Shown: positions 9,408 to 46,630, counted from the first letter of the stretch. The stretch is 64,000 bases of DNA from a virus (IMGVR_UViG_3300045996_004119:1-64000), one strand, 5' to 3'. A program made the numbers and translations. Notes: generated by a model not told the origin, from the sequence alone.

Positions 9408-9719
9408 TCATCGGCCCGCCTTCCTGCGCATCACCCGCACACCGCTGCTTCCCACCACCTCGCCAGCCGCGTTGACCCTCGCTGACACGGCCTCGACCCA
9501 GACGCCCGGCTCCGCCTCGACGCGCTCCCCGGGGGCCATCCGCTCGGCGAGCTCGGCCCTGGCGCCCGCTGCCACGGCCTCAGCGCGCACGAGGCGCAGC
9601 GCGACCACGTGGAGCGGCAGCGGCGGGGGAGCCGGGCGGACCGGGCGCGCGCGGATGCCGGAGGGCGGGTCGTCCCAGGAGGCGTCGATCGCGGCGAGGG
9701 AGAGGGCGGTGGAGGTCAT
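9408..9719 (-). CDS. Hypothetical protein
   Basis: Start overlaps the nuclease stop. Confidence 0.55.
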   Translation of the reverse strand: MTSTALSLAAIDASWDDPPSGIRARPVRPAPPPLPLHVVALRLVRAEAVAAGARAELAERMAPGERVEAEPGVWVEAVSARVNAAGEVVGSSGVRVMRRKAGR

Positions 9720-11044
9720 GCGGCCTCGCCTTCCTCGTCGCCAGTCGCCTGCCCCGGGTAGTGGGCCTTGAACGTCACGCCCTCGGAGACCGTCTCCCCG
9801 CCGCGCTCGCGCACCCTGCCGAGCACCGCGTCGAGCGCCGTCTTGATCCCGCCGCGGTTCCGGATGCCGGCCTCCGCGCGCGCGGCCTTGATGACCCGCT
9901 TGAGCGCCGCCACGGACCCGCCAAACGCTTCATCCGCCAGCTCCCCGGCGCGCTCCTCGCCCACGATCTCGGCGAGCTCGGCCTGGAGCTCCTCGTATGT
10001 GTCCCGGGTCCGGAGGCGCCGTCGCGTCGTCGGCTGCGGGCCCCACACGCGCCCATCCGGAAGCGCGATCGGCCCGTGCGCCTCCACGTACGCCACGAGC
10101 GTATCCCGCGCGCCGTCCAGTACCTCTCTCGCTGGACCCAATAGCCCCGCCAGGCGCGCCGCCTCCTCCGGCGACAGGTCGCGAGCGCGGGCGAAGTCCA
10201 CCTGCCCGCGGACGAGCGCCGCGGCCTCCGACGTGTGCGCAGGGCAGGCCGCGCGGCACGGGCAATACCGGCAGTGGTCCCCGGTCACCAGGTCGATCGG
10301 ACGGCCCTCTGCGGCCCGGCGGCGCTGCTCGCGCCCGCGCTCGGCCACCGCGCGCGCCTCGGCCTCGATCTGGGCGAGCTCGCCAGGCCCAAGCGGGATA
10401 GCGCCCCCCTCTCCGTCGAGCGGCACGTCCCAGCGCCCGGCACCACCGCCCGCCGCGAAGCACACCGCGGGCACCACGCGCTCGGCGCCTGTCCAGCGCG
10501 CGAGCATCACCGCACCGATCCGCACCTGGAGGTTGCGGCGGACCGGCGGCACGTAGTCGTCCTGGCCGAACTTCCAGTCGGCCAGCCACGCCGTAGCGCC
10601 GCGCGGCGCGCGCGGGGCCCCGTCGTCGCCACCGACGAACGGCTTTGGCTCAGCCCACGCGACGTCCACGGTCCCGGCCCAGAGCGTCCCGTCCGGCGCG
10701 TCGTAGGAGCCCTGGCCGCCGCGCGCCCGCACGACGGAGCCGTCCTCGAGGTAGGCGAGGGGGAGCTCGCAGATCGAGCCCCGCGGCGCCTGCGGTTTCC
10801 ACGCGCGCATCGCGCCGAACCAGCGCGCGGCATCGTCGCCTTCCAGGCCCCAGCGCTCCGCGATGTCGGGCGCCCGGAACTCGGCCTCCTCGCGACCCTC
10901 TTCGATGAGGATCTGCGTGTACGCGTGGCCCGCGTTGCCGGCGTCCGCCTTGATCGAGACGTGCCCAACGCGCGGGAGCGCCATCGAGCCCGGGCAGAGC
11001 GCCGCGCGGTGAGCGCCGGAGAGCGTGAAGAGCGGTGAAGCCAT
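9716..11044 (-). CDS. DUF2800-like PD-(D/E)XK nuclease (RecB/Cas4-like recombination exonuclease)
   Basis: N-terminal CPGS, AGTVDV...ADWKFG, NLQV, C-terminal GDHCRYCPCRAACP. Confidence 0.8.
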   Translation of the reverse strand: MASPLFTLSGAHRAALCPGSMALPRVGHVSIKADAGNAGHAYTQILIEEGREEAEFRAPDIAERWGLEGDDAARWFGAMRAWKPQAPRGSICELPLAYLEDGSVVRARGGQGSYDAPDGTLWAGTVDVAWAEPKPFVGGDDGAPRAPRGATAWLADWKFGQDDYVPPVRRNLQVRIGAVMLARWTGAERVVPAVCFAAGGGAGRWDVPLDGEGGAIPLGPGELAQIEAEARAVAERGREQRRRAAEGRPIDLVTGDHCRYCPCRAACPAHTSEAAALVRGQVDFARARDLSPEEAARLAGLLGPAREVLDGARDTLVAYVEAHGPIALPDGRVWGPQPTTRRRLRTRDTYEELQAELAEIVGEERAGELADEAFGGSVAALKRVIKAARAEAGIRNRGGIKTALDAVLGRVRERGGETVSEGVTFKAHYPGQATGDEEGEAA

Positions 11045-37740: not shown

Positions 37741-39110
37741 TGCGGTGGGAGCACGCTCAGTGGAGGAAGCTCTACGTTCGAGAGGAGGGCTCCTTCGCAA
37801 TGCTCCCTCTCTACGTGCGGGCCCTTGCTGCGGAGCTCATGAAGTTCTGCGACGACCAGGGGCGCATCTTCGTCGGCGGACGAGCCCCGTGGGACGCGAT
37901 CGCGCGCATCGCGCGCGCTGACATGGGCGAGCGGCGTCTGCTCAAGCAGCACATCCCCATGCTCATCGCCGACGGCTACCTCGTGCAGGACGGGCAGCAC
38001 CTCATCATCAAGAACCTCGAGCGCGCGCAGGAGCGGCGCAGGCCAGGCTCCTCCGGCCCGGGTCGCAACGAGACCGGCACGACCGAGGAACGAACCGACG
38101 ACGACCTCGACACGAGCCTCGAACGAATCCGGAACGAACCGACGACGACCTCGACACGAGCCTCGAACGAATCCGGAACGAGAAGTGAGACAAGTGCGCG
38201 AAATGATTCAACCGCGACCCTCGCGTACGCGGGCGCGCGCTCAGTACAGAATAGAGAAGATCCGAGTAGATCCGAGGATCTTTCTTCATCATGGGCCGCG
38301 CCCGACGGCGGCGATCCGGAATTCGCCGAGCATCCCGCTGGGCGCGACCGTCCCCTGCCGCCTGCTTACCTCGAGCCCCAAGCCGAGCCGGAACAGCCGC
38401 GTGGAGGCAGCGGTCCATCCGGCGGGGAGCTCGCGCCGACCAACGGTCCTGCGGCTGCCCCAGGCCCCGACCTCCTGACGATGGCCACGTGGCTGGCCGA
38501 GTCGGGAAGCGGCTTCGGGCGCAAGATGGTCGACTGGGCCGCGGAACAACGGTCGTATTCGCCGTCGCAGAAGGAGAAGATCAGGGCGCTGTACGCCGAG
38601 CGCGTCGAGGCTCAGGCGAACGCGGAGCGCGCCAAGGCGGCCAAGGCCGAGCTAGACGCCGCGCCGGCCACCTCAAGGTCCCCAGCTGACGCAGCGAAAG
38701 CCGAGACCGACGCCATGGCGCTCTGGTGCGAGTTCTGGGGGAAGCGCCACGGGGGCGAGGCGTACCCGGTGACGGATCGCGACCGGGGCGCAATGCGCAA
38801 GCTCATGGCGCGCGCTCAGGCCAGGGCCAAGGAGGTCGGCTGCGAGCGCTTCCGCGAGGTGCTGGGCCACTACCTGTCCCGCTACCTCGCCATCGACGAC
38901 CGGAAGCTCGTCGCCGAGCGCTACCCGCTGCACCTGCTGGAGAGTCGAATGTCAGCGATCGGCGACTATCAGGCGGCCAAGGCGCGAGCACCTCGTCGCG
39001 CCCATGAGCCCGAGCCAGAGGGCACGCCGGCGCCGCCTGAGGCCATCGCTGCGCTGGCCAACATCCGGTTCGCTGCGCCGGTCGCGCGGCAGGCAGGAGG
39101 CGCGTCGTGA
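37737..39110 (+). CDS. Putative phage replication initiator protein
   Basis: Directly upstream of and overlapping dnaB; N-terminal wHTH-like region; internal iteron-like repeat. Confidence 0.6.
   Translation: MMRWEHAQWRKLYVREEGSFAMLPLYVRALAAELMKFCDDQGRIFVGGRAPWDAIARIARADMGERRLLKQHIPMLIADGYLVQDGQHLIIKNLERAQERRRPGSSGPGRNETGTTEERTDDDLDTSLERIRNEPTTTSTRASNESGTRSETSARNDSTATLAYAGARSVQNREDPSRSEDLSSSWAAPDGGDPEFAEHPAGRDRPLPPAYLEPQAEPEQPRGGSGPSGGELAPTNGPAAAPGPDLLTMATWLAESGSGFGRKMVDWAAEQRSYSPSQKEKIRALYAERVEAQANAERAKAAKAELDAAPATSRSPADAAKAETDAMALWCEFWGKRHGGEAYPVTDRDRGAMRKLMARAQARAKEVGCERFREVLGHYLSRYLAIDDRKLVAERYPLHLLESRMSAIGDYQAAKARAPRRAHEPEPEGTPAPPEAIAALANIRFAAPVARQAGGAS
38087..38181 (+). repeat. 44-bp perfect tandem repeat (2 copies plus partial third), putative ori iterons
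   Basis: GGAACGAACCGACGACGACCTCGACACGAGCCTCGAACGAATCC at 38087-38130 and 38131-38174, then GGAACGA. Confidence 0.9.
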
Positions 39111-41620
39111 GGCGCAAGAGCAACCTGGCCAAGGTCCTGCGGCTCGAGCCGAAGAAGGGGGCCGTCCCGCCGAACAACGTCGACGCCGAGGCGGCCGTGC
39201 TGTCGCAGGTTCTGCTTCACCCGGAGACGCTCGACGAAGTCGTCGATCTACTGAAGCCAGATCACTTCTACTCGTTCTCGAACTCCAAGGTGTTCGAGGC
39301 CATGATGGAGCTCGCCGGAACCGGCGCCGCCATTGACGTTGTGTCCGTGGCCGCTTGGCTTCAGGCAAGGGAGCTGTACCACAGGGTCGGCGGCATGGAG
39401 TACATGCTGCTGCTTCGAGACAGCATCCCGTCGTATGGCAAAAGCATCACGACGCACGCGAAGATCGTCCACGACCTGTGGCGGATCCGGGAGCTCGCCA
39501 TCGCGTGTCACCGCGGCGCCGCTGGCTGCTACGGCGACGTCGGCGACGTGCAGGCGTACGTCGACGACGTCGAGCAGTCGATTTACGACATCGCCCACGT
39601 GAGCGCGACGAACGACGCGCAGCCGATCGGCGCTGTCCTCCAGGATGCGTTCCGCGAGATCGTCGCCGTGGCCGAGAGCGGCGGGCGCATCTCCGGTCTG
39701 CCGACGGGGTACTACGATCTCGACGAGATGCTGGCCGGTCTCCATGGGGGGGACGTGACCGTCGTCGCCGGCCGACCCGGAATGGGCAAAGCGCAGCCTC
39801 TTGAGGCCAAGGTCCTCACGCCGATCGGCTGGAGGCTCATGGGTTCTCTCCAGGTCGGCGACCTCGTGATCGGTGCCGACGGTGCGTCCCACCGGATCAC
39901 AGGCGTATTCGACCGCGGCGAGCTCGACGTGTACCGCGTCACAACATCGGACGGCGCGAGCACGGAGTGCTGCGACGAGCACCTCTGGTTGACGCGGAAC
40001 CGCTCGGAGCGCCGGCGTGGCGTTCCGGGGGGCGTCCGGAAGCTCCGAGAGATCCGTGCGACCCTGGAGCGCGCAGCAAGCGGCGGGCTCAACCACAGCA
40101 TCCAGTTCATGAGGCCGGCGGAGTTCGAGCCGGTCGGCGATCTGCCAATCGACCCGTACCTCATGGGGATCTACCTCGGCGACGGGTGCGGCTCGGGGCG
40201 CCGGGTTGGCATCGACAACCCGGAGGCCGACATCCGCGAGCGCGTGAGGGAGCTCCTGCCGAAAGGTGACGCACTTACCGAGGCGCCGGACGGGCTGCAC
40301 ATGCGCATCAGGCGCGAGAAGCGCACAGGCGTCCAGAGCAACACGAGGGCATCGCTCGAGGCCATGGGGCTCACTGGGCGACGATCGTGGGAGAAGTTCA
40401 TCCCGGAGGTCTACCTGCGCGCGCCCGTCGCCGACCGCGTGGCCCTGCTCCAAGGGCTCTGCGACACCGACGGCTACGTCGTGCAGCCGAAGATCGTGGA
40501 GTACACGACGACCTCGCCTGCGCTCCTGGCCGGCCTGGAGTTCCTCGTCGGGTCGCTCGGTGGGCGCTTCACGTGGACCGAGAAGGATGCCCACTACACC
40601 AAGGCGGACGGCGCGCGGGTGCCAACGCGGAAGGCATATCGCGCCCTCATCAGCTTCCCCGGCGGGCACGTCACGCCGGTGTCGTCGCAGAAGCACCTGG
40701 CGAGATGGGCCGGTGGCCGCGTCCGCATCAGCGAGCGCTTCATTCAGCGCGTGGAGTACGTCGGGAAGAAGGCGTGCCGCTGCATCGCCGTCGACGCAGC
40801 GGACCACCTCTACGTGACCGACGGGTTCCTGGTGACGCACAATACGTCCAAGGTTTTGAACATTGCCGTCAACGTCGCGTCGCCGCGCGAGGAGCGCCGC
40901 GAGCACGGCGAGATGGCGACGGTCCCTGGTGAGGCGGCCGTGGTGTTCTCGCTCGAGATGCCGCGCGACCAGTTGGGCAAGCGCATGCTGTGCACCGAGG
41001 CGCGCGTCGACCTTGGCAAGCTCCGTCGCGGCAGGCTTCAGCCGGCCGACTGGAACAAGCTGACCGAAGCCGCAGCGCGCCTCGGCCCGCTACCGGTGAT
41101 CATCGAGGACACGCCAGGGCTGGGCCTCATGGAGATCCGCGCCCGCGTCAGGCGGCATCAGGCAACCTGCGCGCGGAACGGCATCAAGCTCGGGCTCGTG
41201 GTGATCGACTACCTACAGCTCATGCAGGGGCGAGAGGACGCCCGGAGCCGCGAGGAGGAGATCGGCGAGATTTCCCGCGGGCTGAAGCGGCTCGCGAAGG
41301 AGCTCAAGGTGCCGGTCATTGTGCTGTCGCAGCTGAACCGGGAGGTCGAGAAGCGGAGCGCCAAGACGAAGCGCCCTCAGCTCTCGGACCTCCGCGAGTC
41401 GGGCGCGATCGAGCAGGACGCCGACAACATCATCTTCATCACGCGCCGAGATTACTACGAGCAGGAGGACACGCCGAACGACTGGAAAGGGATCGCGGAG
41501 ATCGACGTGGCCAAGCAGCGCAACGGTGCCACCGGCCGCATCTACATGCGCTTTGACGCGTCGTGTACTCGGTTCGATAACCTGGCGCGCGAGGACTGGC
41601 CGCAGACTTCATGGGATTGA
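39107..41620 (+). CDS. dnaB: Replicative DNA helicase DnaB containing an intein
   Basis: PPNNVDAEAAVL, GRPGMGK/T, FSLEM, VVIDYLQLM, VLSQLNREVE, LSDLRESGAIEQDAD, KQRNG. Confidence 0.96.
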   Translation: MRRKSNLAKVLRLEPKKGAVPPNNVDAEAAVLSQVLLHPETLDEVVDLLKPDHFYSFSNSKVFEAMMELAGTGAAIDVVSVAAWLQARELYHRVGGMEYMLLLRDSIPSYGKSITTHAKIVHDLWRIRELAIACHRGAAGCYGDVGDVQAYVDDVEQSIYDIAHVSATNDAQPIGAVLQDAFREIVAVAESGGRISGLPTGYYDLDEMLAGLHGGDVTVVAGRPGMGKAQPLEAKVLTPIGWRLMGSLQVGDLVIGADGASHRITGVFDRGELDVYRVTTSDGASTECCDEHLWLTRNRSERRRGVPGGVRKLREIRATLERAASGGLNHSIQFMRPAEFEPVGDLPIDPYLMGIYLGDGCGSGRRVGIDNPEADIRERVRELLPKGDALTEAPDGLHMRIRREKRTGVQSNTRASLEAMGLTGRRSWEKFIPEVYLRAPVADRVALLQGLCDTDGYVVQPKIVEYTTTSPALLAGLEFLVGSLGGRFTWTEKDAHYTKADGARVPTRKAYRALISFPGGHVTPVSSQKHLARWAGGRVRISERFIQRVEYVGKKACRCIAVDAADHLYVTDGFLVTHNTSKVLNIAVNVASPREERREHGEMATVPGEAAVVFSLEMPRDQLGKRMLCTEARVDLGKLRRGRLQPADWNKLTEAAARLGPLPVIIEDTPGLGLMEIRARVRRHQATCARNGIKLGLVVIDYLQLMQGREDARSREEEIGEISRGLKRLAKELKVPVIVLSQLNREVEKRSAKTKRPQLSDLRESGAIEQDADNIIFITRRDYYEQEDTPNDWKGIAEIDVAKQRNGATGRIYMRFDASCTRFDNLAREDWPQTSWD
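39791..40843 (+). mobile_element. 351-aa class 3-type intein with LAGLIDADG homing endonuclease in the DnaB Walker A motif
   Basis: Starts AQPL, ends VTHN then Thr+1; block B EHLW; block F RCIAV; LAGLIDADG motifs YLMGIYLGDG and LLQGLCDTDG. Confidence 0.9.
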
Positions 41621-41701
41621 CCATCTCGCCTTGCACGCCCAACCCCACCTGCTAAACAGCCATTGCGCAGCCGGGCGACCGTGAGCGCGGAGGAGACATG
41701 A

Positions 41702-41797
41702 ATGTCGACGGCTGAGGCCATCGTGGAAGTCACCAAGATCGTTGGGACGGTGACGTTGGTGCTAGGGATTTTCTGGTTCATCGGGAGGCGCGATTGA
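41702..41797 (+). CDS. 31-aa single-TM peptide
   Basis: GGAGGAG RBS; MSTAEAIVEVTKIVGTVTLVLGIFWFIGRRD; stop overlaps the next start. Confidence 0.55.
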   Translation: MSTAEAIVEVTKIVGTVTLVLGIFWFIGRRD

Positions 41798-42705
41798 GCC
41801 TCGCCACACCCGCTCTCCACGACATCGCCTCCTCGTCGCACCATCGCGACAGCGACGACCGGCTCAAGGACGCCGACAACCTCGCCTTCCTCGCCGGGCA
41901 GCCTGCCGACGTGCGCGCGGCGTGGCTTCCCGTATGCGGCGTCCTCCGCGAGCTCGACCGCATCATCGAGGCGGCGCGCCTCGACCGCGACCACGGCCGC
42001 CTGGAGCGCCTCCGCGAGGCATGGAACGCGCTCTGGACCGAGGGGCGCGTCCTCCCCAGCGACGAGGCGCGGGTTCTGCGGCGCGCTCGGGAGCTCTGGC
42101 TCGCCGACGAGAGCATCTCGGCCGTGGTGGCTGGTGCGTCCTTCGACGAGTACCTGGAGGCGGTCGTCGAGTACAGCCGGCCGGGCGTGGAGTTCCAGAG
42201 CCTCTGGGAGCACAACCGGATGCTCCTGCGCATCTCAGGCTCGATGTTTCGGCTGTTCCCGTTCGTGCAGCCGCACCAGCTTCGCGCGATCGGGCACTTC
42301 GGCGCCTTGGACCACTTCTTCAACAACCTCCGCGACATCCAGGAGGACGCCGAGGCGGAGCTCGTGTTCTTTCCGCGCGAGGTACTGGACCGCTTCGGCG
42401 TGCGGCGCGGGCACATCTCCACCGGGCGCGCCGTGGGCACACCGGAGTTCCGCGCGATGATGACGTGGTGGCTCGACGAGTACCTCCCGCAGGTGCGCGT
42501 GTGCGCGCGACCGTTCGTCGCCGCCGAGGACCTGCGCCCGTCGGTCGCGGCGCTGCGGGCGCACTCCCTGCGCCGGTACGCGCGCGTCGAGCGTGTGCTG
42601 CGGGGGCTGGACTTCGACTACCGGGCTTTCCCGCAGGTGTACGAGGCCGAGGTGCGGCGGGAGATCGGGGAGATGGCGCTGGGCGCGAAGGAGGTAACTG
42701 CATGA
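41794..42705 (+). CDS. Squalene/phytoene synthase family (class I isoprenoid synthase fold) protein
   Basis: PADVRAAW...LRELDRIIE; FGALDHFFNNLRDIQED...FFPREVLDRFGV. Confidence 0.8.
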   Translation: MSLATPALHDIASSSHHRDSDDRLKDADNLAFLAGQPADVRAAWLPVCGVLRELDRIIEAARLDRDHGRLERLREAWNALWTEGRVLPSDEARVLRRARELWLADESISAVVAGASFDEYLEAVVEYSRPGVEFQSLWEHNRMLLRISGSMFRLFPFVQPHQLRAIGHFGALDHFFNNLRDIQEDAEAELVFFPREVLDRFGVRRGHISTGRAVGTPEFRAMMTWWLDEYLPQVRVCARPFVAAEDLRPSVAALRAHSLRRYARVERVLRGLDFDYRAFPQVYEAEVRREIGEMALGAKEVTA

Positions 42706-43049
42706 AGGCGAACGAGTTCTGCTACTGGCTGCAAGGGTACTTCGAGATCTGCGAGGCGCAGGGACTCTCGACGAAGCTCGATGGGGCGGCGGCGCGCTGC
42801 ATCGAGGCGCACCTGTCGCTTGTTGCGAAGGTGGAACCGGATCACAGCAACGTCTTCGTCGCGTGGCTGAATGACCACCTGAGGAAGCCGAGCCCGGTGG
42901 GGCCTGACGCGGTCCTGATCCGCCGGTTCCTCGCTGCGCAGTTCCAGCACGTGATCGACCCGTCGTACGGCGGCGACCAGATGGCGCTGGGGAAGATCCA
43001 TGGGACCGGCGGCCAGAGCTGGCCGACCGACGGGTTGATCCGGTGCTGA
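42702..43049 (+). CDS. Phage hypothetical protein
   Basis: MKANEFCYWLQGYFE; RBS AGGAGG. Confidence 0.75.
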   Translation: MKANEFCYWLQGYFEICEAQGLSTKLDGAAARCIEAHLSLVAKVEPDHSNVFVAWLNDHLRKPSPVGPDAVLIRRFLAAQFQHVIDPSYGGDQMALGKIHGTGGQSWPTDGLIRC

Positions 43050-43060
43050 GGGAGGCCAGG

Positions 43061-46000
43061 ATGCACTGCGATCTGACGATCCGAGGCGCCACGCCGGAGC
43101 AGGCTGAGGGCGCCGTCAGCCCGAACGACCGCGAGCGCATCGGACGCGTGGTCCGCGAGATCTGGATCGACTGGGCCCGCGAGCAGCCGAGCCCGAAGCC
43201 GACGTGGCTCCTGCCGTGGGAGGACCTGACCGACACGTACCGGGAGGCTGGCTGCCGCATCGGGGAGCAGCTCTTCTCGATGGGGCTCATGGCCGGGCGC
43301 GCCGTGGGAGAGGAGGAGGTCGAGGCGCTGCGGAAGCGGGTGGCGGAGCTGGAGTTCACTCGCGACGAGCTCACCGGCATCCAGCAGGGCGACAGCGTCG
43401 TGGATGCGGCCGCGAAGGCGGAGAGCGTCGCCCTCCCGAAGCAACTGTCGGAGGCGCGCGCGGAAGCGACGACGCTGCGGGAGGACGTCGAGCGCTGGCG
43501 CAAGACCAACGGCGATATCGGAGCGGCCCTCGGGGTGAAGCCTGGCGAGGCCGTGCGCGACGCCGCAACCCGCGTCATCGCAGAGCGCGACCGCATCCAG
43601 CGCGACTGGGAGCAGCAAGGCGCGATGCTGCATGAGATCGAGGCCCGAGTGGCCGAACTCGACGCGACGTGCGATCGGGTGTGGGACGCGCTCGGCGCCA
43701 TCCGGACTGGCGAGGATCTGGCGGATGCCGTGGCGCGGCGCCTGGAGGAGGCGAGCGCGGATGCCGCCCCGGATGCCGTATCCCCGCTCCGGCCGGCGGA
43801 GGACATCGCGCGGGAGATGGTGGGCTGCGCCGTCGAGCGCTTCGGTGGCGACTGGGGCTTCACGGTCTGGACCAAGGGCACAGACGGTCGAGACGTCGAT
43901 CTGGTCGTCGATGGGTACGTGCGCGAGGAGTCGGCGAACCGCGACAGCAACAGCCTGCGCAAGACGATCGTGGACATCATCGAGCGCAGCCGCGCCGAGG
44001 GCAAGCGCGCGCCCGTCGAGGCGCCCCGCGTGGCGGCGGTGGTCGGGCCTCACATCTGCCGAGCCCACGACCGCGAGGTGTTCGTCGGCGATCGCGATGG
44101 GCTCAAGGGCTGCGACGAGACAAGCCCGCGCTTCTGGCACTGCACCATCCACCTGAACGGCGAGCACGTCGCGCTGGCCGGCAACGAGGTTTGCGCGCGC
44201 TGGCCCATCGCGCCGGCGCAGGATGAGCCGCAGGCGGCGAGCGAGGGCCGTGTGACCGGTTCGTATTGCGAAGTCGAGATGTCCTGGCCGCGCGGCGCGC
44301 AACCCGACTTGCTGGCGCTCGATGCCGCATGGCTCGTCGGGGCACCGGGCGCCCGTCAACCCGGATACATCCAGTCGCTCTACAGCCATCCCGCCGGGTT
44401 GCGCCTCGCGATGCCCAAAGACGCCGACCCCCGCGCCGTGCTCGCGACCGTGGCCGAGCTGTTGGGCCTGCAGGACCAGCAAGACGAAGCGCGCGCCCTG
44501 TCCGATCTCCGGCGCGCGCACCACGCAGAGCGTGACGACGAGCCCGCGAACATCGACGACCGTTGGCAGCACCGCCGAGAGCGGCTGTCGCGCGACACGC
44601 ACGGATCCGCGAGTGCGTTCGAGCGCGCCTATCTCCACGGGATGAGGGACGCATACACCGTGGCCGGCGTCGAGATGCGGCGGGCGCGTGGGCAGGCCGA
44701 GCGCGAGCTCGGCAACCCTGCCGTGCTCAAGCACTGGTCGGACCGGACGCCCGACGAGATCGAGCGGTGGGCCGAGGAGGCCGAGGGCGACAACCCACGT
44801 CACGCGTCGTGGTGCCGCGGCGTCGCCGCTGGCATCCGCGAGGGTGAGCGGCGGGCCGGCGAGGCGTGGCAGCGCGCGACCGAGGCGGGCTCGCCGGCGG
44901 GCGCTGCTGGAGCGATGGCCGGGTTCCGCGCGCGCAACAGGGCCTGGCAGGACGCGACGGGCGTTGAGCAGCCGGAGTATGTGCAAGCCGCGAAGGCATC
45001 TCTCGTCGAGCGCGCGATCACGCAGCTCGAGGTCGGGATCGCGGAAGGCGAGCGCCGCGCCGAGGAGAAGGCGCGCCTCGATGTCGAGCGCGCCGTGGCC
45101 GCCGAAGCCGCACGGGGCGACGCGGCGAGGCTCGAGGTGCACGAGAAGTACCTTGCGACGGCGCGGGAGCTCGTGACCGACTGGGAAGAGCGGCGCACGA
45201 ACAACATCGCTGGACGCGACGACACCAATCTTTCGCGGTTCACCCGCGATCGGCTTGGGGCGAAGGCGGACGCGCGCGAGACCTGCATCAACGATCTCCG
45301 CGCCGCATTCAACCTCTCCGACAACAAGCCGCCGACGGGGGGAGAGCCGGCGCCGGTGGACAATGGGCCAGCGCATGGTCCAGGGTGCGACGTGCGCGCC
45401 GACAGGACGCAATGCGCGTTCGACTGCCCGAAGCGGCGCGCCGACATGGCCAAGCGATCGGAGGCTGTTGCGGATCGCGCAACTACTCACGTCGAGCCCG
45501 CGCAGCAGTCGACCGACGAGCGCCCGGGGCTCGCCGCCGGGCAGACGTGGCGCGACGTTAGCGGGGCCGAGTACCTGATCCAGGAACGCGAGGAGCGCAC
45601 GCCTTGTTCTACGCTGTTCGCCGTCTCCGCGGGCGGTGGCCTCGTGCCCATGTACCGCGCCGACGCGCCGAGCGGCTGGACCATCGTGTCCGACGCGCCC
45701 GCCGCCGAGCGCTGGCGGCCGGGCGCCGTGTGGGAGCGCATCGGCGAGCGTGTCACGGTGCGCGATTCGAGCGACGATGAGATCGTGTTCTGCGAGCATG
45801 GCTGGTGCACGGATCGGCACCTGATGACCGAGCGGAACGGCTGGCGCTACGTCGGCCCCGGCGCGGCGTCGGGTGGCAACGGCATGGAGGCAGACGGAGC
45901 GCAGATCGAAGCGCCTCTTGGGGCTCAACCTGAAACACCAAACGTGCCAACCTCCTGTCAAGTTATTCCGTCGGGAGCGGAGAGTTCTACGGGCGCAGGA

Positions 46001-46630
46001 TGCTCGGGGCCAGCGCCCGTCGTCCCCGGCAAGCCCTCTGCCGAGGAGCGCGCCGCCGTGCAGCAGCAAGTGGACATCGGCGCCGGGGTCACGTCCACGG
46101 CCCCCAGCGGGATGACGCTCGGCGGGGTGTGGGAGGCGCTCAAGCGCGTCGCTCGCGTCGACCGCGAGGAGGCCATGTCCATCGAGCGCGCGCACGCGGA
46201 CGGCATCGTCGAAGGGCTCCGCCGCGCCAGGGACATCGCGCGGCGCATGTCGGACGCCGACCGGCTCCAGGCTGTCGACGTCCACGAGATGCACGAGCGG
46301 CTCGACGCGGCCGTGCGCGAGGCAGCGGCCAACGTCGCACCAGCCGACCTGCCCCACGTGGACCGGTCGGCGCTTCTGGGGCTCGCGACGGGGTGGGAGC
46401 GCGCCGACACGCGACTGAGCGCGAAGGCTGCCGACGCGAGGCGAGACGAGGCAACCCGACGCGTATACGAAGGCGAGGCGCGCGGGTTCGCGGTTGCCGC
46501 GCTGGAGCTCCGTCGCCTCCTGGACGCGCCGAGCGGGCCTGGGGGAGAGCGCGCGACCTGCCGCGTCGGTCACGGCGTCGACGACGCCTGCGCGGAGTGC
46601 GCGCCTCGGCGCGCAGGAGGATGGAGATGA
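43061..46630 (+). CDS. Large mosaic coiled-coil hypothetical protein (1189 aa)
   Basis: Long ORF in the expected codon frame; RBS GGGAGG. Confidence 0.75.
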   Translation: MHCDLTIRGATPEQAEGAVSPNDRERIGRVVREIWIDWAREQPSPKPTWLLPWEDLTDTYREAGCRIGEQLFSMGLMAGRAVGEEEVEALRKRVAELEFTRDELTGIQQGDSVVDAAAKAESVALPKQLSEARAEATTLREDVERWRKTNGDIGAALGVKPGEAVRDAATRVIAERDRIQRDWEQQGAMLHEIEARVAELDATCDRVWDALGAIRTGEDLADAVARRLEEASADAAPDAVSPLRPAEDIAREMVGCAVERFGGDWGFTVWTKGTDGRDVDLVVDGYVREESANRDSNSLRKTIVDIIERSRAEGKRAPVEAPRVAAVVGPHICRAHDREVFVGDRDGLKGCDETSPRFWHCTIHLNGEHVALAGNEVCARWPIAPAQDEPQAASEGRVTGSYCEVEMSWPRGAQPDLLALDAAWLVGAPGARQPGYIQSLYSHPAGLRLAMPKDADPRAVLATVAELLGLQDQQDEARALSDLRRAHHAERDDEPANIDDRWQHRRERLSRDTHGSASAFERAYLHGMRDAYTVAGVEMRRARGQAERELGNPAVLKHWSDRTPDEIERWAEEAEGDNPRHASWCRGVAAGIREGERRAGEAWQRATEAGSPAGAAGAMAGFRARNRAWQDATGVEQPEYVQAAKASLVERAITQLEVGIAEGERRAEEKARLDVERAVAAEAARGDAARLEVHEKYLATARELVTDWEERRTNNIAGRDDTNLSRFTRDRLGAKADARETCINDLRAAFNLSDNKPPTGGEPAPVDNGPAHGPGCDVRADRTQCAFDCPKRRADMAKRSEAVADRATTHVEPAQQSTDERPGLAAGQTWRDVSGAEYLIQEREERTPCSTLFAVSAGGGLVPMYRADAPSGWTIVSDAPAAERWRPGAVWERIGERVTVRDSSDDEIVFCEHGWCTDRHLMTERNGWRYVGPGAASGGNGMEADGAQIEAPLGAQPETPNVPTSCQVIPSGAESSTGAGCSGPAPVVPGKPSAEERAAVQQQVDIGAGVTSTAPSGMTLGGVWEALKRVARVDREEAMSIERAHADGIVEGLRRARDIARRMSDADRLQAVDVHEMHERLDAAVREAAANVAPADLPHVDRSALLGLATGWERADTRLSAKAADARRDEATRRVYEGEARGFAVAALELRRLLDAPSGPGGERATCRVGHGVDDACAECAPRRAGGWR

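Follow-up and report, generated by a model that had tools for sequence, protein, structure and literature searches.

The stretch of DNA analysed here, referred to as the window, comprises the initial 64 kb (64,000 nucleotides) of the 126,110-bp IMG/VR record IMGVR_UViG_3300045996_004119, a soil phage related to Sorangium prophages. Just downstream of the dnaB gene of this phage lies a gene for a 303-residue protein of the squalene synthase/phytoene synthase (SQS/PSY) type, which probably encodes a working isoprenoid enzyme. The record carries direct terminal repeats, and its completeness according to CheckV is 100%. The window has a GC content of ~70%, and its Pfam domains include a tyrosine integrase, RecT, a PD-(D/E)XK nuclease, a C5 methylase, an AAA ATPase, TerL, and a Mu-type portal; Mom, thymidylate kinase (Tmk), MT-A70, and PadR genes are also present. 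The complete record with its terminal repeats, together with the integrase, RecT, TerL, and portal genes, bears out the initial annotation, in which the gene was described as phage-encoded.

The SQS-like gene and the parts of it that are discussed below are as follows, with positions counted from the first base of the window.

41794-42705, + strand: SQS/PSY-fold protein, 303 residues, TTG start (PF00494, AlphaFold2 model, structure matches, and hhalign)
41857-41871, + strand: family-specific invariant D22-x-x-K25-D26, located where canonical enzymes have the SK(S/T)F helix (27 + 14 sequences, HMG-CoA reductase fusions included)
41944-41970, + strand: first carboxylate motif, LRELDRIIE, residues 51-59 (invariant across the family; mapped onto CrtB)
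42322-42348, + strand: second Asp-rich motif, N177-N178-L-R180-D181-I-Q-E184-D185 (alignment with CrtB; invariance in the family)
42358-42363, + strand: E189-L190, replacing the G-R of canonical CrtB and of most of the family (alignment; common only to relatives P0002 and P0003)

Fold and active-site residues of the 303-residue protein

The open reading frame (ORF) has GC contents of 0.75, 0.46, and 0.88 at the first, second, and third (GC3) codon positions, which is the coding pattern of genuine genes in a genome of 70% GC. A ribosome-binding site (GGGAGG) is found 8 nt 5' of the start, and the homologues share this start position. The location just after dnaB had been read correctly, the end of dnaB lying 81 nt before a 31-residue ORF that precedes the SQS-like gene; the start quoted for the unit, 41620, is wrong, being the final base of dnaB.

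The protein matches the Pfam family SQS_PSY (PF00494) with 33.7 bits (E 4.2e-8, residues 37 to 228), above the curated gathering threshold of 26 bits, and a six-frame search of the phage record with this family gave 31.4 bits. An AlphaFold2 model built on 27 homologues was obtained with a predicted local distance difference test (pLDDT) of 90.3 and a predicted template modeling (TM) score of 0.88. Comparison of the model with CrtM in Foldseek gave TM scores of 0.66 to 0.72. In VIA-align, the top matches were CrtM-like, PSY, and CrtM structures (8isa, 8is6, 5iys, and 3ae0; Z 20 to 21, root mean square deviation 3.2 to 3.5 over 255 to 260 residues), followed by the carbazole prenyltransferases CqsB4 and LvqB4 (Z 18.5 to 18.8), HpnC (4hd1; Z 18.0), squalene synthase (Z ~17.5), and YisP (Z 16.5). 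Profile comparison by hhalign of the family with canonical CrtB from Sorangium and cyanobacteria gave probabilities of 95.8 to 96.5. The coding pattern, the Pfam match, and the class I all-alpha fold agree with the assignment made in the initial annotation, and the ORF, which is intact, falls in a small and as yet uncharacterised subfamily within the squalene/phytoene synthase (class I isoprenoid synthase) superfamily.

At the level of individual enzymes, the resemblance is faint. The NCBIfam equivalog models for HpnD and HpnC gave 26.6 bits (cutoff 278.6) and 20.2 bits (cutoff 250.45), and matches to PDB profiles reached an E value of 4e-5 only. No equivalog-level similarity to characterised CrtB, CrtM, SQS, HpnC, or HpnD was thus found with the NCBIfam models, with the PDB profiles, or in the phylogeny, in which the protein falls in a separate clade. 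Searches of PHROGs, PADLOC, and the BFVD folds gave no match for the protein, and the ESM Atlas returned SQS_PSY clusters with automatic names only.

The two Asp-rich motifs were found where they had been described, the second canonical and the first altered. FFNNLRDIQED occupies residues 175 to 185, and FFPREVLDRFGV occupies residues 192 to 203. Alignment places N177, R180, D181, E184, and D185 of the second motif (NxxRDxxED) on CrtB N191, R194, D195, E198, and D199; apart from N178, which varies slightly, the positions of this motif are the same throughout the family. In the first motif, R52, D55, and E59 align with CrtB R57, D60, and D64, such that DxxxE replaces DxxxD. The motif keeps a carboxylate at its last position, which is Glu rather than Asp throughout the family. 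The Tyr, Arg, and Asp equivalent to CrtB Y271, R280, and D284 are also retained. Every residue that holds Mg2+ and diphosphate in CrtB and CrtM (R52, D55, E59, N177, R180, D181, E184, and D185 in the numbering used here) is thus invariant in the family.

The Arg of the GRxYLP motif, reported as missing, is indeed absent from this protein, but this is not a trait of the family, most of which has GRCYFP. The loss is shared with P0002 and P0003, and the three proteins also have His in place of Q174 and Phe for the Tyr of CYFP.

Elsewhere, the profiles diverge. The canonical SK(S/T)F motif fails to align in the comparison with CrtB (confidence ~0), and the invariant DxxKD occupies its site. In section B, the Tyr positions of the CrtB motif YxYxVAGxVG are aligned with M143 and L145, and AGTVG is lacking, in a stretch where the confidence of the alignment is low. 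The Tyr-bearing section B motif is required for the first half-reaction in SQS and CrtM. The signatures of the cyclopropane-forming half-reaction are therefore not recognisable in the sequences of the family. Since both YxYxVAGxVG and SK(S/T)F are unrecognisable, the product is probably not squalene, dehydrosqualene, or phytoene, and a new chemistry, which the initial annotation had raised, appears more likely.

Relatives in phages and on chromosomes

A word-seeded search retrieved 27 relatives of the protein, the nearest by identity being P0002 (86%), P0003 (82%), and P0004 (55%). An exhaustive phmmer search of 1.84 billion cluster representatives gave 103 matches, nearly all of them belonging to this subfamily and not to canonical enzymes. 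Among phages the gene is rare. None of the 50,697 deposited phage genomes searched contains a homologue from the subfamily, and a canonical CrtB query retrieved three records from them, two from Staphylococcus and possibly containing host DNA. It was found in 3 of 2.9 million IMG/VR contigs, the record of the window included.

Four other elements share the gene order of the window, namely, the IMG/VR contigs L082 (101.6 kb) and L083 (98.1 kb) and the prophages of Sorangium So ce134 (L023) and So ce388 (L022). The common order consists of methyltransferases, a helix-turn-helix protein, an initiator with a helicase or loader, a small ORF, the SQS-like gene, and shared downstream genes. The SQS-like gene occupies one syntenic position, after the replication genes, in all five of these phages and prophages (98 to 126 kb).

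In a maximum-likelihood tree, an 18-member clade forms around the five phages with support of 100/100, within the Myxococcota copies. Each of the five members with a readable context is a phage or a prophage. Cyanobacterial copies and CrtB fall outside the Myxococcota part, the branch to CrtB is long, and the tree does not single out an exact sister group. A monophyletic phage-borne clade nested among the chromosomal copies of Myxococcota is consistent with an old acquisition from a host among the myxobacteria. Most of the clade carries a C-terminal tail (Gly, then A/S/V-K-E-I/V-T; the last 7 residues, 42682-42702) that is absent from the chromosomal members of the family. By phylogeny and location, this is a host-derived metabolic gene in a bona fide phage genome.

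Between close phage pairs, the ratio of nonsynonymous to synonymous divergence (dN/dS) is 0.32 to 0.44, a sign of purifying selection; among the dN/dS values computed, the row for the MT-A70 gene (window versus L023) was excluded as a codon-alignment artefact. These ratios, the single old clade, and the intact state of every ORF read speak against a recent decaying capture. The SQS-like allele of the window is only 44 to 50% identical to the other four phage alleles, whereas flanking genes reach 88 to 91%; synonymous divergence is similar and saturated for the gene and its flanks. The SQS-like gene therefore either evolves much faster than its neighbours or is swapped as a cassette.

The chromosomal copies were surveyed with one genome per prokaryote species. 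A syntenic copy is present in each Sorangium genome returned, and further copies are found in Chondromyces, other Polyangiaceae, metagenome-assembled genomes of Myxococcales, and many filamentous cyanobacteria. Sorangium So ce56 carries a single copy of this subfamily beside one canonical CrtB (~248 bits). In Myxococcota, a stand-alone response regulator and a HAMP-PAS histidine kinase adjoin the gene convergently at ~58 to 62 loci from distant taxa (in So ce56, L014 10897-13652), and the myxobacterial neighbours also include GT2 and DUF1015 genes. The cyanobacterial neighbours are accD and psbV. Across this survey of neighbourhoods, no terpene cluster and no crtI, crtE, or hpn gene was found beside the chromosomal copies.

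In two metagenomic members, P0056 (692 residues) and P0098 (720 residues), the domain is joined to a complete HMG-CoA reductase, and none of the subfamily motifs is missing. The reductase half is 62 to 65% identical to HMG-CoA reductases of Myxococcota, and in 301 Myxococcota genomes sampled, only the stand-alone reductase was found. These two fusions provide the best link on hand between the subfamily and isoprenoid metabolism. In some myxobacteria, HMG-CoA reductase genes lie within carotenoid clusters (PMC9304148). In literature searches, neither the subfamily, nor SQS/PSY genes in phages, nor the phages described here turned up in any paper.

The transcription and translation unit around the gene

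The genes and elements that surround the SQS-like gene in the window, and the small ORFs that occupy the corresponding slot in the related phages, are listed below.

39107-41620, + strand: DnaB replicative helicase with a LAGLIDADG intein, the upstream neighbour (Pfam DnaB, DnaB_C in two stretches, and LAGLIDADG_3)
41629-41696, + strand: conserved intergenic element of ~70 nt that heads the unit (48 invariant columns in five phages)
41702-41797, + strand: 31-residue ORF, a plausible single-pass membrane peptide that occupies the slot in the window (GC3 0.81, GGAGGAG ribosome-binding site, 15-residue hydrophobic core IVGTVTLVLGIFWFI)
42702-43049, + strand: gene for 115 residues, function unassigned (ATGA overlap with the stop of the SQS-like gene; GAAGGAGG before the start)
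43043-46630, + strand: protein of 1195 residues, function unassigned (partial homologues downstream in the four related phages)
L023, ~9720-9947: slot ORF, Cys-rich and zinc-ribbon-like
L083, 9684-10004: slot ORF, another Cys-rich ORF
L022, 9672-10001: slot ORF, 109-residue protein
L082, 9606-9941: slot ORF, 111-residue coiled coil

The intergenic element consists of TTGCAC (41631-41636), a spacing of 16 nt, TGc-TAAACA (41650-41658), a hairpin at approximately 41664-41689, and GGAGGAG (41689-41695). Its counterpart in L023 lies at ~9645-9712, and it is found at the matching places in L022, L083, and L082. The element is conserved although the genes on both sides of it differ, the upstream gene encoding DnaB in three of the phages and a DnaC-like loader in the other two; the DnaB homologue of L023 is contiguous and has no intein insert. 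The hairpin shows one compensatory pair, from G-C to U-A. The TTGCAC and TAAACA hexamers may represent a promoter. A simple scan of 41300-43300 found neither a sigma-70 promoter nor a terminator, and the predicted RNA fold of 41655-41810 is no more stable than that of shuffled sequences (z -0.6).

The initial annotation proposed that the enzyme is coupled to a 31-residue transmembrane peptide. The peptide is a plausible ORF, whose stop codon and the TTG start of the SQS-like gene overlap in TTGA. The partner is not conserved, however, and each of the five phages has its own, unrelated small ORF in the slot that separates the SQS-like gene from the helicase or loader. A 4-nt overlap of the small ORF with the start of the SQS-like gene is present wherever the start is clear (the window, L022, L082, and L083). 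It is thus the coupling to the SQS-like gene that is conserved, and not the partner. Three soil-metagenome runs yielded scattered short contigs, some of them exact and none across 41685-41798, which are uninformative on expression or on the peptide.

Downstream, the 115-residue protein begins with MKANEFCYWLQGYFE and has a weak match to PHROG 28500 only; homologues lie at the matching place in L082 (66% identity) and L083 (88%). The gene had been described as part of a moron-like module, which does not agree with its conserved position in all five phages, the lack of a terminator in the scan, the coupling to the next gene, and a GC content that resembles that of the surroundings. Conservation of position, no terminator, and coupling at both ends indicate a conserved transcription and translation unit and not a free-standing moron. 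As regards a promoter of its own, a conserved promoter-like element does lie upstream.

Possible functions of the phage protein

On balance, and with some reserve, we interpret the protein as an auxiliary enzyme of host origin that would bind a prenyl diphosphate of the host, ionise it, and give a product other than squalene or phytoene. The retention of the gene at one spot in five related phages suggests that the enzyme probably works. It would bind an allylic prenyl diphosphate of the host, either farnesyl diphosphate (FPP) or geranylgeranyl diphosphate (GGPP), and ionise it with Mg2+. Instead of the canonical condensation products, the outcome may be another prenyl transfer, hydrolysis, or elimination. 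The fold is capable of chemistry that is not head-to-head, as in CqsB4 and LvqB4 (PDB 7vwt and 7vws) and in the farnesyl diphosphate phosphatase YisP (3we9). These enzymes share the fold of the phage protein; their sequence similarity to the family profile is, however, weak (E 0.009 to 0.02), and in contrast to them, the SQS-like gene is not surrounded by a natural-product cluster.

The whole 126-kb phage was searched for polyprenyl synthase, CrtI-type oxidase, UbiA, and cis-prenyltransferase, and none of these four families was found. The protein would act alone on host substrates, as the product of an auxiliary metabolic gene that may be coexpressed with early or middle genes, and would alter the isoprenoid pool of the host, or one of its products, during infection. 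The 31-residue peptide would be an incidental occupant of the variable slot, outside this mechanism. The gene resembles other phage auxiliary metabolic genes in being host-derived by phylogeny, located between phage genes in a complete genome, and kept by the lineage, whereas its enzyme class is almost unknown in phages.

Several observations weigh against this interpretation. The catalytic reading of the subfamily comes from sequences and models, and binding without catalysis would keep the same residues. The first motif is altered, reading DxxxE, and the loss of G-R, the change of Q174 to His, and that of Tyr to Phe in the window protein and its two nearest relatives could mean an altered or weakened activity. 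The apparent loss of the catalytic Tyr is read from a low-confidence stretch of the profile alignment. With flanks 88 to 91% identical, the window allele differs from the other phage alleles by a dN of 0.5 to 0.6. The gain for the phage is conjectural; altered membrane isoprenoids, carrier-lipid depletion, and superinfection exclusion, all proposed in the initial annotation, would be candidates, the last two being no more than guesses.

A noncatalytic binder of prenyl diphosphates is the strongest of the alternatives, and we consider it rather unlikely. The protein would then be a sensor, a regulator, or a sink, acting for instance in feedback on the mevalonate pathway or on a signalling pathway, and by making it the phage would tie up FPP or GGPP or disturb the pathway of the host paralogue. 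The loss of the condensation signatures with retention of the diphosphate-binding residues is consistent with such a role, as is the proximity of the regulator and kinase genes in Myxococcota, and in the fusions with HMG-CoA reductase the subfamily domain could act allosterically. The full catalytic-type set of residues (the Asn, the Arg, and both carboxylate pairs) is, however, invariant, as in active enzymes. Regulatory fusions are, moreover, no more frequent than those that join consecutive enzymes of a pathway, which counts against this explanation.

A somewhat less probable reading gives the regulatory genes a larger part; in Myxococcota, the chromosomal gene almost always adjoins the response regulator and the HAMP-PAS histidine kinase. 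The subfamily would make or bind a novel isoprenoid-derived molecule tied to signalling, and large temperate Sorangium phages would have captured the gene to manipulate that pathway or lipid. If true, this would represent a new type of reaction on the squalene synthase fold and a new manipulation of the host by a phage, via terpenoid chemistry.

It is more doubtful still that the gene encodes an ordinary head-to-head synthase that makes phytoene, dehydrosqualene, or squalene and boosts or restores the carotenoid, hopanoid, or sterol precursors of the host. The PF00494 match, the top structural matches to CrtM and PSY, the presence of both carboxylate motifs, and the automatic naming of the relatives as phytoene synthase all point in this direction. 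With CrtM and CrtB/PSY, the protein indeed shares the all-helical fold (255 to 267 residues aligned), a second motif of the same kind, and the R-x-x-D of the first motif. It is, however, only 12 to 15% identical to them, its first motif ends in Glu, the invariant DxxKD is new, neither YxYxVAGxVG nor SK(S/T)F is recognisable, and it belongs to a separate clade and has no carotenoid neighbours. To HpnC and HpnD of the hopanoid squalene pathway, it is linked by weak NCBIfam matches and by the fold match to HpnC; the scores are about a tenth of the equivalog cutoffs, and no hpn neighbours were found. The phmmer search, moreover, retrieved almost solely the subfamily, the hosts already hold a canonical CrtB beside their subfamily copy, and crtI and crtE are absent from the phage and from the vicinity of the chromosomal copies.

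A role in DNA hypermodification, by displacement of diphosphate from a pyrophosphorylated base, was considered in view of the nearby Mom, Tmk, and methyltransferase genes and is unlikely given the HMG-CoA reductase fusions and the conserved chromosomal copies. It is very improbable that the phage carries the gene as a functionless passenger, neutral or in decay: the window lineage has lost G-R, Q174, and the Tyr, and its allele shows a dN/dS of 0.74 to 0.83 against the other phage alleles, but dS is saturated in these pairs (synonymous divergence pS 0.42 to 0.48, GC3 ~0.9), which makes the ratio unreliable, and the lower ratios of close pairs, the intact ORF with 24 invariant positions kept in 18 of 18 clade members, the conserved position in five phages, and the good ribosome-binding sites with coupled starts all argue against decay.

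Isoprenoid enzymes of the SQS/PSY fold are nearly absent from known phages, and the long retention of this gene by a phage lineage points to a route of action on the host that is still unexplored. The gene also brings to light a subfamily, so far uncharacterised, of a well-studied superfamily, one in which active-site signatures are altered and natural fusions to HMG-CoA reductase occur.

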